Part shown: in pieces, positions 28,867 through 39,684 of the stretch
Position numbering within the stretch: position 1 is the stretch's first letter
Layout of the letters: each line of letters opens with the position of its first letter
Source of the DNA: a virus
Lineage: Duplodnaviria; Caudoviricetes
Direction: 5' to 3' (one strand)
IMG/VR virus record: IMGVR_UViG_3300032129_000024
Span: 1-39,684 of that record
Length of the DNA stretch: 39,684 bases
Program-made: the position numbers and the translations under genes
Notes under the pieces: model-generated
The model's database searches: none
Seen by the model: only the letters and a program-made list of their open reading frames with translations
Told to the model about the DNA's origin: nothing

Positions 28867-29439
28867 GTGAACCGGGAACGACAGCAGCAAATAGACAACT
28901 ATTCGGGGGAGCTAACTGAAGGCAACGGGCACAGCGCGGAAGACATAAAACGGATCATCACGGGGCTTTCTAAGCTGGCCACACTAGAAGAGGCAGCAGT
29001 ATCCCGCATGAAGCCTCACAGCGAGAAGGCAGCGACGGCAGTGAACATCAATAAGGGGGAGAGGGTTATCGCAGCACTATACGAAAGCCTCAGTCTGATA
29101 GAAGACGGGGAATACGAGGCAGCGGGTGAAAGCCTGGGAACGCTGGCAGGCATGGCAGCACCACGGCGGAAGATGCCGGAGTTCACCGAGAAGGAGGATG
29201 ACGTGTGGCCTGCCACTCCACCATCTAAGCCTCAGGCAAGCACGCTCTCCCGCACACGGGCACTCTACGACAAGTGGGAACAGGAAGAGGACGACAGGAA
29301 CAAGCTCCAGGACCCGGACTTCCAGCAGTGGCTGAAGGTCATGGGACACACGGTAGAATATGACTTCGTCCGTGAAGAGGCAGACGTAGTTCCTGCCCGT
29401 CCGGCTCCCGGTCGCAGTAACCGTCCGGAGGACTACTGA
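28867..29439 (+). CDS. Hypothetical protein
   Basis: RBS AGGAG then GTG at 28867; TGATG coupling to the next gene. Confidence 0.75.
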   Translation: MNRERQQQIDNYSGELTEGNGHSAEDIKRIITGLSKLATLEEAAVSRMKPHSEKAATAVNINKGERVIAALYESLSLIEDGEYEAAGESLGTLAGMAAPRRKMPEFTEKEDDVWPATPPSKPQASTLSRTRALYDKWEQEEDDRNKLQDPDFQQWLKVMGHTVEYDFVREEADVVPARPAPGRSNRPEDY

Positions 29440-30314
29440 TGGACTTCACGATGGACGACGTGGTGCACTTCGTAAACGAGCGCCATGCAGCATTCACGGG
29501 CGACACAGTAACCGACCCCATCATCAAGACCCGGAAGTTCACTAACGTCTTCCGCGTGCTGGACCGGGGCAGTCAGTACCTTCTGGAGCTGATGGACCTG
29601 TACGACGATCCGGCAGACCGTATCGCAATCAGCTATTTCTACAGGCAGGTGAACCGCCCAGACACGATGAAGGCGATCATCAGAGCGAACGACGGATACG
29701 CTCCCAACTTCGCGGACATTACCAGCCCCAAGTTCTACGACCGCGTAGTTGCGCCAGTGCTGGCAGCGCGTCCGGGTGAGTTCCTGAACGGGGCTTACAT
29801 TATCCTCATCAAGCCCGGTGACAGCCGTGGCACCTTAGCTAAGATGCGCGAGATGTTCCCAGCAGCAGGGCCACACCTTGCCCATGTGGCCAAGATCCCG
29901 CACCTGGACCTCAGGGTCAGCGGATTGCAGCGGACACCGGGCCTGGGACCGTTTCTGTCTATGCAGATCGCGACCGATATGGGTTATTGTGCAGGCGAGC
30001 CGGATCAGGAGAACGACTTCGTGTTAGCTGGCCCTGGAAGCCGTAAGGGTGTGCAGGCGATCTCGGATAAGAAGCCCGAGGACGTCATCAAGAACTTTCC
30101 TGTAGGAGAGATCCCAGCCCTGCCCGGGAGCAACGGCAGGCCCGCCAGCTGGATGGACATTCAGAACGTCTTCTGCGAGTTCAGCAAGTATGCCCGATAC
30201 GTCCAGAAGGGCAGCACAGCAGGCAAGCCCTACGAACGCCGAGGTAGCTACGACGTACGAATTCCTGACCAGTTTGTAAATAAATCATCTAAGGGGTTGC
30301 GAAGGAAATCATAA
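29439..30314 (+). CDS. 5-hmdU DNA kinase-like protein (aGPT-Pplase1 / HMUDK helical family)
   Basis: FVNERH...DPII...KFTNVFRVLDRGSQ, GAYII, HhH-like PGLGPFLSMQIATD, GPGSRKG, QNVFCEFSKY. Confidence 0.8.
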   Translation: MDFTMDDVVHFVNERHAAFTGDTVTDPIIKTRKFTNVFRVLDRGSQYLLELMDLYDDPADRIAISYFYRQVNRPDTMKAIIRANDGYAPNFADITSPKFYDRVVAPVLAARPGEFLNGAYIILIKPGDSRGTLAKMREMFPAAGPHLAHVAKIPHLDLRVSGLQRTPGLGPFLSMQIATDMGYCAGEPDQENDFVLAGPGSRKGVQAISDKKPEDVIKNFPVGEIPALPGSNGRPASWMDIQNVFCEFSKYARYVQKGSTAGKPYERRGSYDVRIPDQFVNKSSKGLRRKS

Positions 30315-32583: not shown

Positions 32584-32616
32584 GGCCACACTTAGCCGAG
32601 CGCGCTAGGTGTGGCC
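32584..32616 (+). terminator. Hairpin, probable terminator
   Basis: GGCCACACTTAGC...GCTAGGTGTGGCC. Confidence 0.6.
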
Positions 32617-32622
32617 TACCCC

Positions 32623-32651
32623 TTGCGGGAAAAAAATCAATGCGCTAAGGT
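32623..32651 (+). promoter_or_regulatory. Promoter TTGCGG-17-TAAGGT for the nucleotide-modification operon
   Basis: Consensus match; A-tract spacer. Confidence 0.65.
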
Positions 32652-32698
32652 TAGTTAGCTGGTGCACTGCACCGGGTAAAATTCAAGGAGAACAAGCA

Positions 32699-33448
32699 AT
32701 GAGCAAGACAGATTCTGAAGATATGGTGCTGGCACTGGCCGACGCCCCGATCGATCCTCGTACCGGGAATAAGGTGCTGTACTCGGCCAGCTGGAAGGCA
32801 ACGAACCACTCCATGATCGGCGAGCTGAACCCTGACTGGGTACGCCGTGAGCTGGACTGGTTCATGTCGGGTAGCAATAAGCTCAGCGACATGGAAGGCC
32901 CGGTCCCCAAGCTGTTCCAGGCTTGCGCTGGTATCGACGGCAAGGTGAACAGTGCCTACGGTCACATCCTGTTCAGCAATGAGCTGAAGTACCCATACCT
33001 CGGCATCCCGCTCTTCGACCGCGTGGTCAACACCTTCGTCAATGAGGGGGCCAGCACTCGGCACGCCGTGGCGATTATCACCGACCGCGATGTTCACCAG
33101 CTTGCAACCTACAACGAGCGCAAGGACTTCATCTGCACGAACGCGCTCAACTTCATGATCGACTCGGACCAGAAGCTGCACATCATTGCACAGATGCGCT
33201 CCATGGACGCCGTGTTCGGCTATCGTGCGGATTACTCCATGTGGGACGCGCTCATGGAGTACCTGCTCGGGAACCTGGAAATGGTCTTCCCCGACCTTAC
33301 CCGTGGCGACATCACTTTCCAGGTCGCTAACCTCCACGTCTACCCTCGTCACTTCGACCTGCTCACCCAGTGGGCCGACAAGATCTACGACGCTCAGGAG
33401 ACCGAGATGCGCGGCATCTGGGCCAAGAACAAGGCGGTCCGTTCATGA
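32699..33448 (+). CDS. Thymidylate-synthase-fold enzyme, dCMP hydroxymethylase (T4 gp42)-like
   Basis: NSAYG, DFICTN (catalytic Cys), MRSMDAVFGYRAD (Asp at the base-specificity position), NLHVYPRHF; RBS AAGGAG before ATG 32699. Confidence 0.85.
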   Translation: MSKTDSEDMVLALADAPIDPRTGNKVLYSASWKATNHSMIGELNPDWVRRELDWFMSGSNKLSDMEGPVPKLFQACAGIDGKVNSAYGHILFSNELKYPYLGIPLFDRVVNTFVNEGASTRHAVAIITDRDVHQLATYNERKDFICTNALNFMIDSDQKLHIIAQMRSMDAVFGYRADYSMWDALMEYLLGNLEMVFPDLTRGDITFQVANLHVYPRHFDLLTQWADKIYDAQETEMRGIWAKNKAVRS

Positions 33449-33744
33449 ATCCCTGGGAACTGCTGCTGGCCGTGCTTGGCTGGGGCCTGCTGGGCGCTGT
33501 GCTGCTCGTGCTGGCGCTCCTGCTGGGTGGCCTGCTGGCCCACGGGGCACGCTGGGCACGCAAGCGGGCACGGGGCAAGCGCCCACAGCCTACAGCGGGG
33601 AGCCAGCCCACGGCAGAGGACGAGTACCTGCTGGAGGCGACCATCATCGGAGTGAGCCTGTACGGCACAAGCCCTAACCCGTCCCTGGAGGCCTTCCGCG
33701 CTGGTGCGCGCTGGGCTTGGGCTTACCGTGGGGTGAAGCCGTGA
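33445..33744 (+). CDS. Membrane protein
   Basis: Long Leu-rich TM segment followed by a basic patch; ATGA and GTGA overlaps. Confidence 0.75.
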   Translation: MNPWELLLAVLGWGLLGAVLLVLALLLGGLLAHGARWARKRARGKRPQPTAGSQPTAEDEYLLEATIIGVSLYGTSPNPSLEAFRAGARWAWAYRGVKP

Positions 33745-34664
33745 GTAACCTTCCACTCTTGATCCCGAGCTACAACCGACCTGACGCTCCTCTGGTCAAA
33801 CTGGCGAGTCAGCTCATGGGTGACGATTACCCGTGGTGGACGTTCGTCCGCAAGAGTCAGGTCCGTGACTACTCGGCCACTGTGCCGAAGGGCCACATCG
33901 TATCCATGCCGGATGCCAAGGTGGGCACACTTGGGGACACGCGGAACTGGATGATGCGCTGGGCCTTGCGTGAGGGCTTTCCTATGGTGTTCGACTGGGA
34001 TGATGATGTGGCCCGGATTGGCCGTAAGCTCCCGGACGGCACACGTCACCAGTCCTGGAAGTCCACCCGTAACGACGACCCGTGGTTTGACGGACCCGGT
34101 TACTGGGAGGAGGCCAGTCGGCTCTCACGTCAGGTCTTCAAGCTCTATCCTGGGACCGTGGTGGGCAGCGTGCAGAACCAGCGCTGGGCCAGCACAGCGA
34201 CGCTCCAGGTGCAGTGCGGGAAGACCCCAAGGCGTACCAAGATCCTGAACGTGCAGCGTCTGGTGGATAATGAGCTATGGTGCCCGCCGGAGTTCCGCTT
34301 CCACGGTGAGGACATCGGCAACCTCGCCTCCTACCTCCAGTATGACTGGCAGGTATTCACGATCTGTAATCTGGTGTATGATTTCGTATCGGAGACGGAC
34401 ATCAACCTGCCGAGCACCTTGCGGAGCCGGGACGAGGAACAGAACCGAGCCATCCACAGCGATGAGTTTGACAGCTTGCAAGGCTATGACATCAAGGACT
34501 ATCTTAGGATCAATAAGTCCTATGATGACGGGTCCTATATGTATGGTGATGTAGACTGGCGCAAGTTCAGGAAGCTCACTGGACAGGTTAGCTACACTCA
34601 CGAGTTCCGTGCTATCATGGACCGTGTGCAACTCCGGGACATCCCGGTATCAATCAAGAACTAG
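33741..34664 (+). CDS. GT-A fold glycosyltransferase (TET-associated/GREB1-like pattern)
   Basis: LLIPSYNR, GDTRNW, FDWDDD (DxD), GEDI. Confidence 0.8.
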   Translation: MSNLPLLIPSYNRPDAPLVKLASQLMGDDYPWWTFVRKSQVRDYSATVPKGHIVSMPDAKVGTLGDTRNWMMRWALREGFPMVFDWDDDVARIGRKLPDGTRHQSWKSTRNDDPWFDGPGYWEEASRLSRQVFKLYPGTVVGSVQNQRWASTATLQVQCGKTPRRTKILNVQRLVDNELWCPPEFRFHGEDIGNLASYLQYDWQVFTICNLVYDFVSETDINLPSTLRSRDEEQNRAIHSDEFDSLQGYDIKDYLRINKSYDDGSYMYGDVDWRKFRKLTGQVSYTHEFRAIMDRVQLRDIPVSIKN

Positions 34665-34672
34665 GAGATCTA

Positions 34673-35260
34673 ATGCTTATCGCGTTTGAAGGCCCCGACA
34701 ATGTGGGCAAGTCCACCAGCGCTATGAACCTAACGCACGACGGCAGGTCCATCTATAATGCGACCATCGCCAACTATCACGAAGCTCGTCAGGACCTGAT
34801 CGATTCGCAGGAGACGGACCTCGTGGTATGCTTTGACCGGATCGACTGGTTCAGTCACATGGTCTACCGGCTGGCCTTGCCAGGCCGGGAGTGGAACGAC
34901 GTGCGACCCCGTACCGTGTTCGCCATGCCGGACACCCACTTGGTCGTCAAGCTGCATCATCCCGACTTGGCTAACTTCACAGCCGACGAGATCGTGGACA
35001 CCCCCATCGCCCAAGTGAACCCGATGTACCGGGACCAAGCGGAGTTCCTGGCCGCGATCAATAAGTCCCGAGGCTACAACCTCTTCAAGACCGTTTCTAT
35101 CATCGAGGTCTTGCACGACCAGCAGACCGGGTCCTACTCCCAGCATCTGGTGATGTTCGACAGCCCCGTCTTCCAGTGGGGTGCAGCAGCGGCCCGAATG
35201 GTGGACAGCGACGAACGCCTGCTAGAGTTGCTCCAGTATGACGAGCAGCAGCGCGTCTGA
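34673..35260 (+). CDS. dNMP (thymidylate-kinase-like) kinase
   Basis: IAFEGPDNVGKST P-loop; FDR...S.MVY. Confidence 0.85.
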   Translation: MLIAFEGPDNVGKSTSAMNLTHDGRSIYNATIANYHEARQDLIDSQETDLVVCFDRIDWFSHMVYRLALPGREWNDVRPRTVFAMPDTHLVVKLHHPDLANFTADEIVDTPIAQVNPMYRDQAEFLAAINKSRGYNLFKTVSIIEVLHDQQTGSYSQHLVMFDSPVFQWGAAAARMVDSDERLLELLQYDEQQRV

Positions 35261-35978: not shown

Positions 35979-36608
35979 ATGAGTGAACGCGACGACATGA
36001 CCGAGCAGGCTTACCACGGACCGGCGATTGTGGCCATGCCCATTGACGCCTACGAAGTCCACCTGAATAAGATGGCTCAGCTGTTCTTTGAGTCGGCCGG
36101 ACTGCCCCTGTATATGTCAGACAAGCCAAACATCGTTTCGGGCTTGCGTGCCGTGTTCTCGGGCAAGGCTGCACCACTGCCGACAGGCACCCTGGAGGAT
36201 CTCGCTCCGAAGGCTCCTGCAGTCCCCAGCGCTCCGGATCACGTCTATTCCGCTGAGCAGGGCTTGGACTACATGCTCGGCCTCCAGCACAAGGTTGAGA
36301 GCGTCTGGGGTCGTAACGTAGACGCGTCCGACCCCGAGGCCGTGAGCAAGTACATCCGGGAGGTTATCCTGTGCACCACGGACGAACTCCATGAGGTACT
36401 GGCCGAGGTGCACTGGAAGCCCTGGAAGGACAGCCGTGGCATCAAGGACCTGAGCAAGTACCGGGGCGAAATGGCCGACGTGCTCCACTTCATCCTGGAC
36501 CTGTACTTGGCAGGTGGCATCACCGGTCGCGAGATCATCGCGGACTACTTGGCCAAGCACCACGAGAACCTCGCACGAAACACGAGCCTCGCGTACCGGG
36601 CCAGCTAG
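35979..36608 (+). CDS. Dimeric dUTPase/dCTPase (MazG-like all-alpha NTP pyrophosphatase)
   Basis: DELHE...WKPWK...EMADVLHF. Confidence 0.85.
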   Translation: MSERDDMTEQAYHGPAIVAMPIDAYEVHLNKMAQLFFESAGLPLYMSDKPNIVSGLRAVFSGKAAPLPTGTLEDLAPKAPAVPSAPDHVYSAEQGLDYMLGLQHKVESVWGRNVDASDPEAVSKYIREVILCTTDELHEVLAEVHWKPWKDSRGIKDLSKYRGEMADVLHFILDLYLAGGITGREIIADYLAKHHENLARNTSLAYRAS

Positions 36609-37072
36609 TGACAACACGATCAACATGGGAGACCGTCTGGGCTGATGTAGCTCAGGCGGTCTCCCGTCGTTCTGCCTGCGATCGTGCTCAGGTAGGTGCC
36701 GTCCTTGTCAAGGACAATCGTGTGGTCTCCACGGGCTACAATGGCCCGGCCAGCGGCCACCCAGCAGACACGTCCCAGGGCTGCCGTAGCTGGTGCCCAC
36801 GGGCAGCAGGGACAGCCCTGGACCTGCATACGGGCTATGGGTACGCCTGCCCAAGCATCCACGCCGAGGCTAACGCTCTACTGTATGCTGCACGGCCACA
36901 CTCAGAGGGGGCGACCCTGTACGTTACTCATGCCCCGTGTGCGGACTGTGCTAAGCTCATTTCCAACTCAGGCGTCGTTCGTGTTATCATGCTGAGATCT
37001 CAGGAAGACCACCGACCCGACCCTGTACCATATTTCCAGGCTTGCGGAATAGAAGTGATGGTCCTATCATGA
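36608..37072 (+). CDS. dCMP deaminase
   Basis: RSAC.RAQVGAV, STGYNG, HAEANAL, PCADC. Confidence 0.92.
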   Translation: MTTRSTWETVWADVAQAVSRRSACDRAQVGAVLVKDNRVVSTGYNGPASGHPADTSQGCRSWCPRAAGTALDLHTGYGYACPSIHAEANALLYAARPHSEGATLYVTHAPCADCAKLISNSGVVRVIMLRSQEDHRPDPVPYFQACGIEVMVLS

Positions 37073-38470: not shown

Positions 38471-38499
38471 TTGCACTCTCCCGAACCGTGTGTAATACT
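38471..38499 (+). promoter_or_regulatory. Probable promoter TTGCAC...TAATACT with AT-rich upstream palindrome GAAATATATTTC
   Basis: Intergenic; -35 matches the genome pattern, -10 spacing imperfect. Confidence 0.5.
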
Positions 38500-38567: not shown

Positions 38568-39011
38568 ATGGCAGTCGCAAAGAACACCAAGGCAGCAGTC
38601 CTCGACAACGAGCTGGACATCGAAGAGACCGAAGCCGAGGTTGAGGTGCAGCCCACCGACAAGCAGATCATCAACGAGGGCATCGGCCGCGTCCTCGAGT
38701 CCCTGACGGTTCCCGGTCAGCACAACCGATACAAGGCCATGCGAGCCATCGCCTTCCAGGCGTTCTCCAACGCCATCGCCGACGGCACCTTCGACGACCT
38801 CGTCGATGAGGCCATCAGCAACGTCGACGCACTGCCGTCCGGCTGGGAAATCGAGCGGGCCGAGAAGACCGAAGAGGTCGTCGCCCCCGTCAAGAAGGCC
38901 CCCGTCGCCAAGGCCAAGGCCGCTCCTGCTGCCAAGGCTGCACCGGCCAAGACCACGGCTGCCAAGGCTGCTCCGGCTGCCAAGACCCCGCGTCGCCGTC
39001 CGGCGCGCTAA
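38568..39011 (+). CDS. Hypothetical protein with histone H1-like Ala/Lys/Pro tail
   Basis: RBS AAGGAG; acidic N-terminal domain; repeated AKAAPA tail. Confidence 0.85.
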   Translation: MAVAKNTKAAVLDNELDIEETEAEVEVQPTDKQIINEGIGRVLESLTVPGQHNRYKAMRAIAFQAFSNAIADGTFDDLVDEAISNVDALPSGWEIERAEKTEEVVAPVKKAPVAKAKAAPAAKAAPAKTTAAKAAPAAKTPRRRPAR

Positions 39012-39015
39012 TGCT

Positions 39016-39065
39016 CACGGGTAGTCATTAGTTCTTCCCCCCTGTGGGACTAGTGGCTGCCCGTG
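39016..39065 (+). other. 20-bp RNA hairpin with five U·G pairs
   Basis: CACGGGTAGTCATTAGTTCT pairs with GGGACTAGTGGCTGCCCGTG. Confidence 0.75.
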
Positions 39066-39071
39066 TTCGCC

Positions 39072-39180
39072 GGGCCAATAGCTCAACCGGCAGAGCACTC
39101 ACATGAGGACGCCAAGGCCCTTCCCCGCCATGGATAAGTCCCGGAGAGATACGTAGGTTCGAATCCTACTTGGTCCACCA
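39072..39180 (+). ncRNA. tRNA-like RNA with Ala identity elements and an expanded, non-canonical anticodon region
   Basis: Acceptor stem GGGCCAA/TTGGTCC + ACCA; D arm GCTC-AACCGGCA-GAGC; T arm GTAGG-TTCGAAT-CCTAC; ~41 nt where a 7-nt anticodon loop should be. Confidence 0.85.
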
Positions 39181-39212
39181 CTAAACTGAACATGAACAAT
39201 AGGAGTCCACCT

Positions 39213-39684
39213 ATGGAATTACTGATTAGCGATGACGTCGCTGAGGTTAGAAAATACCTCGCTTCATCTACCGCTCCACTCATCGTTGACATAGAGACCA
39301 CGTCTCTCACCGTCAGCAAGGGTCGCATCCTGTGTGTCGCCTTCGCCCCGTACGACCGCGAGGACGTGCTGGTGTGGTGGCCCCGTGACCTAGCAGAGAT
39401 CGCCCAGCTGCGACTCAATCGCATGGTCGCACACAACTCGCCGTTCGATAAGCGCTGGCTCAAGAGCTATGGTGCCAAGTGCCGAGTCATCTGGGACACG
39501 ATGTTCATGGCTCATCTGCTGGACGAGAATCACCCCATCGGTCTCAAGGACTTGGGTGAGCGCCTACTTGGGTATCAGTCTTGGGCTGACGACAACGTGA
39601 AGCACTTGGGCGACGAGTTCCTGCCACACGTACCCAAGGTCCAGCAGGCTAAGTCCAAGGCCCGTATCAGCACGTATGCAGGCA
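39213..39684 (+). CDS. polA: DNA polymerase family A, N-terminal 3'-5' exonuclease part (continues at position 1/128)
   Basis: RBS AGGAG; MELLISDD...VDIET (ExoI), AHNSPFD (ExoII), WDTMFMAHLLDEN; absent from the ORF track because it crosses the window end. Confidence 0.95.
   Translation, partial: MELLISDDVAEVRKYLASSTAPLIVDIETTSLTVSKGRILCVAFAPYDREDVLVWWPRDLAEIAQLRLNRMVAHNSPFDKRWLKSYGAKCRVIWDTMFMAHLLDENHPIGLKDLGERLLGYQSWADDNVKHLGDEFLPHVPKVQQAKSKARISTYAG
39558..39684. repeat. Terminal direct repeat copy 2 (circular-assembly overlap)
   Basis: Identical to 1-127. Confidence 0.97.

Follow-up and report, generated by a model that had tools for sequence, protein, structure and literature searches.

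Non-decoding RNAs with an alanine-type acceptor and T arm have been described as the TLD-only tmRNA of mycobacteriophage DS6A, which is proposed to titrate host SmpB, and as the CDS-less tmRNAs of organelles (PMC4131195; PMC11915505). YrlA-type Y RNAs, which in M. smegmatis are cleaved by RNase P and receive a CCA tail and which are present in mycobacteriophages, mimic tRNA in retaining the D, T and acceptor parts, with a permuted topology and a link to Ro60 (PMC4201824). Phage tRNAs that act in the setting of tRNA-targeting immunity have an altered anticodon region and are working decoders that replace the host tRNA (PMC11555353; PMC10264068; 10.64898/2026.07.10.737580), and allo-tRNAs have an 8/4 or 9/3 branch, with an 8- or 9-bp acceptor and a short T stem (PMC5389517). 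In phages of cluster EA, the DNA between a small gene (phrog_4077) and the DNA polymerase I gene (pol) is treated, in the available portions of four papers, as the site of one ordinary tRNA-Ala or an undetermined tRNA (PMC7302621; PMC9583789; PMC12138531; PMC13741009).

The element described here lies at 39072..39180 of the window, the whole 39,684-nucleotide stretch of DNA that was analysed, and occupies the same slot as the cluster EA tRNA, with the same GGR...YCC-A top half and an interior of a new type. Like the DS6A RNA it does not decode; unlike that RNA it retains a D stem of 4 bp and is scored as a tRNA, and many members of its family lack G3·U70. It shares the D, T and acceptor parts of YrlA, whereas the window genome yielded neither a Ro60 (TROVE) gene nor a YrlA match. 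In contrast to the counter-defense tRNAs it cannot decode, and its acceptor/T arrangement is 7/5 instead of that of allo-tRNA. No description of this family was found among literature titles and the opening lines of abstracts, although the candidate-RNA tables of PMC10690425 could contain a member; the slot appears to hold an exchangeable family of tRNA look-alikes that is mis-annotated and undescribed.

The window is one complete phage genome of 59% G+C with a 127-bp end repeat, and the runs containing it are for the most part brine metagenomes. Judged by its proteins, it is a cluster-EA-like Microbacterium phage: the N terminus of pol matches 191 GenBank records and the phrog_4077 protein 181, all from Microbacterium phages and with cluster EA scoring best. 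All features of this locus given next are on the plus strand. A SigA-type promoter-like site (TTGCAC, 17 nt, AATACT; 38471..38499) lies 5′ of the conserved 147-amino-acid phrog_4077 gene (E 1.3e-47; 38568..39011), which forms the left border of the slot. A sigma-70 scan returned no promoters, this site falling under its threshold; by eye, the same −35/−10 spacing recurs in many of 29 relatives. The site likely drives the small gene, the tRNA look-alike and pol and, since many relatives share it, the element is probably made early together with pol. The small gene is trailed by a predicted 20-bp hairpin with a C-rich loop and no U tract (39016..39065); comparable hairpins follow the gene in relatives, and the modeled structure is likely a weak terminator or 3′ stabilizer. 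Downstream of the element, the ribosome-binding region and start codon of pol (39199..39215, 35 nt past A73) are predicted to fold into a small hairpin of their own, and the ribosome-binding word is also found ahead of other genes in the window. The N-terminal part of pol (PF01612 and PF00476) occupies 39213..39684, and the gene runs via the 127-bp end repeat into 1-1512. No tyrosine integrase (PF00589) was found in the window genome, so the element lacks the setting of a tyrosine-integrase attachment site within the 3′ half of a tRNA gene.

The element itself is a real, well-formed tRNA look-alike of 109 nt, with an alanine-type acceptor, a D arm, an extended anticodon domain, a T arm, A73 and CCA. 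The 5′ strand of the acceptor, which begins G1, G2, G3 (39072..39078), pairs with 39170-39176 at probabilities of 0.72-1.0, forming G1-C72, G2-C71 and G3·U70 (39074/39174). The D arm (39081..39096) has a 4-bp stem (39081-84/39093-96; pairing probability 0.99) and GG in its loop, the T arm (39153..39169) has 5 bp including A51-U63 and a canonical loop, and the discriminator A73 (39177) is followed by an encoded CCA (39178-80; together 39177..39180). Outside the anticodon domain this copy carries no lesion. Rfam matched it as a tRNA (49.1 bits, E 2.7e-08), the sole match at gathering score within the window, and gave no tmRNA or YrlA match; ARAGORN made no call on it. The fold of the whole element has a z of −2.13 (8/200 shuffles).

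The anticodon domain (39098..39148, by fold prediction) consists of a weak base stem and an insert. The stem, 39098-102/39144-48, forms four of five pairs, with an A30×A40 mismatch, and encloses 41 nt (39103-39143) in which a GGAC/GTCC helix (39107-10/39138-41) belongs to a single predicted bulged hairpin ending in an 8-nt pyrimidine loop (39119-39126); as 109 of 500 shuffled inserts were equally stable, this fold is no better than that of shuffled sequence. The structural statements of the original prediction, from the acceptor with G3·U70 and A73 through the CCA and the arms to the 41-nt insert, all hold, as does its placing of T-GAG-G at positions 33-37. A canonical tRNA-Ala arm (5-bp stem, 7-nt loop, U33 and NGC anticodon) is absent, and the insert contains no T-NGC word. 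Of the eight excisions in stem register that would cut the 41-nt loop to 7 nt, none yields an alanine anticodon; only two produce U33 together with a purine at 37, each of them reading GAG, with A32 and the A30×A40 mismatch.

There is no sign that the insert is an assembly error. The sequence is identical over 1500 nt in a second locus (L051), and the element is identical, without indels or joints, in contigs of five of eight runs (X2, X7, X8, X6 and X11) at depths of 14-149; the other three runs do not span it, and of the five that do only X11 is possibly independent of the source material. No homolog of the insert was found in GenBank phages, two pattern matches in viral contigs were discarded because their interiors are unrelated, and the best similarity ratio of the window interior among relatives is 0.57, with no shorter version among them, so that by sequence comparison the interior is a type of its own. 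The suggestion that the loop displays a guide or aptamer gained no support: the longest match to the insert elsewhere in the genome is 11 nt, which also removes it as a copy of other phage sequence. Rfam likewise gives no support to a hammerhead or other ribozyme in the insert. A 17-codon frame crosses the insert with no clear ribosome-binding site. The loop at 39119-39126 is C-rich, as is that of the upstream hairpin at 39016-39065, and the insert may derive from a C-rich-loop hairpin of this kind; the hairpin of one relative gives a weak match to 6C RNA (31.6 bits, under the gathering score).

How does the slot compare among related phages? Defined as the stretch that runs from the phrog_4077 gene to the start of pol, it was collected from 24 GenBank records together with viral and metagenome contigs, and the counting set was hand-picked to 67 rows (the window and 66 loci) after duplicates, truncated loci and distant polymerases were dropped. 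Four of these rows form a distant group without the element. Among the remaining 63 EA-like genomes or contigs, an element with a T arm is present in 58 and the slot is empty in five. Five of the 58 were set aside: L009 and L013, each with a Met(CAT)-like gene whose acceptor is mismatched in the same way; L083, with an ordinary-looking Gln-type tRNA; and L028 and L068, in which the register is unclear. The other 53 rows reduce to 45 distinct family elements. In every case the element lies 23-260 nt upstream of the pol start, and the window copy falls among them both in position, between the hairpin of the phrog_4077 gene and the start of pol, and in its G1-C72, G2-C71, R3-Y70, A73, C74, canonical T arm and non-canonical interior. 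The Met(CAT)-like genes of L009, the nearest relative by pol (88%), and L013 are flanked by additional hairpin modules. GenBank labels for this single locus, which our comparison corrects, range over Ala, Phe, Pro, Ser, Asn and undetermined, and 12 of the 24 records carry no tRNA call despite the element.

The top half of the element is nearly constant. Counts among the 45 come from related rows, are not independent events and are all inflated by kinship: G1-C72, G2-C71 and A73 are each found in 43/45, G53-C61 in 45/45, C5-G68 in 35/45 and A51-U63 in 36/45, and the 3-70 pair is split among G·U (21), A-U (18) and G-C (six), U70 being present in 39/45. The interior (positions 8-48) ranges from 31 to 117 nt and is 74 nt in the window. 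Because the main parser picked the 5′ strand partly by pairing, covariation was tested again with the D arm alone as anchor; in that parse acceptor pairs 4-7 are paired in 97% of cases against 65% in shuffles (0/5000; 22 distinct stems), and T-stem pairs 49-51 in 100% against 60% (0/5000; 13 distinct stems). The acceptor and T stems therefore covary in relatives. Near-canonical anticodon arms occur in only four of the 45, and none joins G3·U70 to an alanine anticodon. Together with the covarying stems, this supports the earlier claim that the element is, as read from sequence, a non-decoding tRNA mimic, and speaks against decay of an ordinary tRNA in one isolate, as the relatives have no ordinary tRNA-Ala at this site.

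Below the top half, two interior types were compared pair by pair, with structures drawn from the same sequences that were tested, so that the controls are biased in their favor. In a type of seven sequences every pair is formed and nine of 21 pairs are changed on both sides, three of them among the six pairs of the interior stem; pair 3-70 varies inside this type (G·U in four, A-U in two, G-C in one). In a type of five sequences, whose acceptor has 6 bp and whose two hairpins carry mutually complementary loops, four of the six pairs of the long interior stem are doubly changed, and covariation of the loop-loop pairs was never seen. These compensatory changes inside the interior indicate that the two types are selected structures. 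EA1-like slot elements with a 6-bp acceptor, T arm and two hairpins lie at L026:1380-1457, L027:1379-1457, L078:1097-1174, L085:1078-1155 and L157:1078-1156, and their loops are complementary over 5 nt, a possible kissing loop. ARAGORN called no tRNA in L026, L027 or L029; in EA1-like records, elements of a distinct type thus exist where it makes no call.

By the pol tree, a quick IQ-TREE run, and by pairwise identity, slot contents differ between phages whose pol N termini are 97-99% identical: Fulton and Hasitha differ from Zayuliv at 98.7%, L018 from Sansa at 98.0%, and PrincePhergus from BouleyBill at 97.8%. The slot is filled in L020 and empty in L021, with pol 99.3% identical, and one slot type recurs at 59-76% pol identity. 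From these patterns the slot looks like an accessory locus for interaction with the host. Several further forms were seen. Mercedes, Juicer and WilliamStrong carry an unannotated type (L457:2143-2254, L458:2107-2219 and L466:2136-2248) with A3-U70, in which a D-arm-like hairpin sits just 5′ of the T arm, past a large unrelated hairpin. HerculesXL and WestPM (L035 and L037) have an unannotated D-armless form of 63 nt with G3·U70 and a long stem topped by an Ala-anticodon-like loop. In the slots of L076/L077 and of L016, Leu-type anticodons (TAA and CAA) stand on alanine-type bodies (A3-U70 and G3·U70); a G3·U70 member with such an anticodon, if it works, could mistranslate.

Swapping, loss and interiors that are selected yet unrelated point to an accessory locus that faces host factors, and for this reason we rank first, tentatively, the reading that the element is a host-processed, non-decoding tRNA mimic that would serve as a decoy for host proteins attacking or sensing tRNA ends. 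The element would be transcribed early from the SigA-type promoter along with the small gene and pol; host RNase P would cut at G1 and 3′ trimming would free the CCA end, giving a stable small RNA. As its sequence stands this RNA could not decode, and no single excision would provide an alanine anticodon. Host AlaRS is predicted to alanylate the window copy, charging being optional across the family. In the last and least secure step, the tRNA top half would occupy a host protein, belonging to a defense system or being a toxin, whose targets are acceptor stems or CCA ends, and the interior would be the variable part, exchanged by phages as hosts and defenses change. The top half is the part read by RNase P, the CCA enzyme, AlaRS and acceptor-end toxins, and attackers of acceptor stems or CCA ends exist in retron Eco2 and HEPN-MNT (PMC12916289) and in MenT and CapRel (10.64898/2026.07.10.737580). 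Against a decoy, in two studies that tested phage tRNAs against defense these worked by replacing the host tRNA, and changes in the anticodon or stem-loop abolished rescue from retron-Eco7 (PMC11555353); under OLD, host tRNA was still degraded (10.64898/2026.07.10.737580). Also against it, CCA is encoded in just ten of 45 elements, the evidence of compensatory change comes from interior types other than that of the window, for whose interior no homolog was found and whose insert has a predicted fold no more stable than that of shuffled sequence, and oversized tRNA-like genes with any acceptor type are common in viral contigs, which would fit frequent decay as well. Anticodon nucleases, named in the original prediction as targets of a decoy, cannot be the target of the window copy, which lacks an alanine anticodon loop. 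A more specific and less probable form of the decoy reading, which we consider unlikely on present sequence evidence, is that the EA cassette supplies exchangeable anticodon-less RNA sponges for immune proteins that attack or sense tRNA ends, with interiors that diversify in an arms race. If so, it would be counter-defense without translation, built on a constant tRNA top half with hairpin, kissing-loop or D-armless interiors. Since phages cultured on M. foliorum, the laboratory host, differ in the slot at ~99% pol identity (Fulton and Hasitha versus Zayuliv), these ideas are directly testable.

Could the element instead act in cis? RNase P cutting at G1 would then separate the upstream mRNA from that of pol, and the tRNA-like cap would protect or tune the pol message. 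We regard this as somewhat unlikely. The parts retained in the family are just those read by RNase P, a nuclease that reads the top half only and so would leave the interior and pair 3-70 free, and the place ahead of pol is fixed. All 35 copies that do not encode CCA have C74 (18/18 in the anchor-only parse); the figure is 41/68 among normal viral tRNAs (p 2e-6) and 17/22 among those rich in GC (p 0.006). C74 is a pairing partner of RNase P RNA, and RNase Z is blocked by CCA (PMC1874595). Cis action accounts for the fixed position and invariant C74 but not for swapping, since a cutting mark has no need of frequent exchange or of compensatory change in the interior, and the slot is empty in five of 63 EA-like rows, one of them the 99.3% sister. 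Two predicted folds of the window sequence are close in energy (−86.9 versus −85.6 kcal/mol), and in one of them the T arm pairs with the ribosome-binding site of pol: 39152-39169 and the hairpin at 39199-39215 share stem letters and can swap strands. This is unconserved in relatives, where the letters of the two do not covary, and the T arm was accordingly rejected as an anti-SD switch. Outside EA, four of ten look-alikes directly precede Prim-Pol (two), SNF2 helicase or PD-(D/E)XK genes, as a cis signal might; the other six lie beside tRNA genes (three) or before WhiB or unnamed genes (three), and early regions commonly contain replication genes anyway. A family in which just the top half is retained would point to a further use of tRNA shape, be it to lure host proteins or to offer RNase P a handle on the mRNA of a replication gene. 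Decay is less probable than cis action. Here a spare or cleavage-resistant phage tRNA-Ala would have come under relaxed selection, the window copy being disabled by a recent insertion and without function. This has some probability for the window copy because its insert is unique and of ordinary predicted stability. Alanine-anticodon-like words persist in several types (19/45 by a loose pattern), oversized tRNA-like genes are widespread, and the nearest pol relatives hold the Met-like gene with its mismatched acceptor. Yet no relative has a normal tRNA-Ala with G3·U70 or a shorter form of the window interior, compensatory change maintains the stems, and damage in the window copy does not extend beyond the anticodon domain.

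Alanine identity offers a further reading, which we think improbable: the RNA, once charged by AlaRS, would carry alanine for a purpose other than decoding, and would either donate it to a non-ribosomal transferase or soak up AlaRS, EF-Tu or a sensor of uncharged tRNA. The window copy bears the full alanine set (G3·U70, G1-C72, G2-C71 and A73) and AlaRS disregards the anticodon (PMC6055181); it is therefore predicted to be chargeable by the host enzyme, and to this extent the original prediction stands. G3·U70 is also more frequent in the family than in normal viral tRNAs (21/45 versus 6/118, p 3e-9, uncorrected for kinship), as is A51-U63 (36/45 versus 45/118), and U70 is nearly general. A51-U63 is linked to weak EF-Tu binding. 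As the point of the element, however, alanine identity is weakened: 24 of 45 lack G3·U70, which changes within single types, making alanylation unlikely as a shared function, and well-supported branches of the pol tree force at least ten changes of the 3-70 label. Insect and human AlaRS no longer charge a tRNA with A3-U70 or G3-C70 (PMC9976931), E. coli AlaRS depends critically on the amino group of G3 (PMC6055181), and no transferase was found among the 35 distinct window ORFs scanned. Least credible of all are a miniature tmRNA and an intron-containing tRNA whose splicing would leave an alanine-identity tRNA with a GAG anticodon. The insert starts near position 37/38, the GAG letters pair with the insert, and archaeal genomes have tRNA-Ala genes that are interrupted by an insert 3′ of a TGC anticodon. 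Nevertheless, only the two excisions noted above yield U33 together with purine 37, and both keep the flawed stem; inspection revealed no bulge-helix-bulge, Rfam found no intron (group I core) in the window, and the RtcB profile matched neither the window genome (0/1) nor its relatives (0/20), a search that covers phage genomes. As regards a tmRNA, the D stem is intact, whereas a tmRNA TLD, with its SmpB site, lacks one; none of the three frames through the insert gives an Ala-ending tag, which TLD-only forms do not need; and neither ARAGORN nor Rfam calls one.

To see how general such genes are, viral contigs were scanned for elements in which a D and a T arm flank a long middle, with the acceptor left unconstrained. 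Rough estimates from 7/64 and 1/64 parts give ~1100 such genes against ~16000 stretches of normal length. The idea that alanine identity generally marks oversized tRNA-like genes of phages was rejected, as G3·U70 occurs in 2/101 long against 6/118 normal genes (p 0.29), in samples of 120 and 125 loci drawn from the scanned parts, the long set including intron-bearing and long-variable-arm tRNAs; alanine-type ends therefore mark the EA lineage and not such genes generally. A strict GGR...UCC-A scan with long middles found 11 in viral contigs (eight G·U and three A-U); among the ten whose surroundings were compared, four lie directly before replication or recombination genes and three beside other tRNA genes. 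In bacterial and archaeal genomes the strict pattern gave 16 matches, none of them actinobacterial, and several are the archaeal tRNA-Ala genes noted above, with their insert 3′ of the anticodon.

Other features of these genomes deserve mention. The window encodes, in this order, a 5-hmdU kinase helical domain (29439-30314), a thymidylate synthase-like protein (32609-33448), a TET-associated glycosyltransferase (33717-34664), a thymidylate kinase (34673-35260) and a deaminase (36608-37072), which together suggest DNA base modification. In eight relatives (L038, L039, L040, L009, L033, L036, L044 and L011), the last 60 nt 5′ of the pol start contain a small pseudoknot-like motif; its 3′ part has an alternative partner in the ribosome-binding site of pol, and changes on the two sides appear to match, as in Juicer. 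As modeled, the motif may be a translational switch; it is absent from the window and had no Rfam match in the 14 loci scanned. Finally, in two unrelated GC-rich phages (L494 and L496), a lone GGR...UCC-A look-alike stands immediately 5′ of a Prim-Pol gene, and the first 24 nt of that in L496 are identical to those of the PrincePhergus element.
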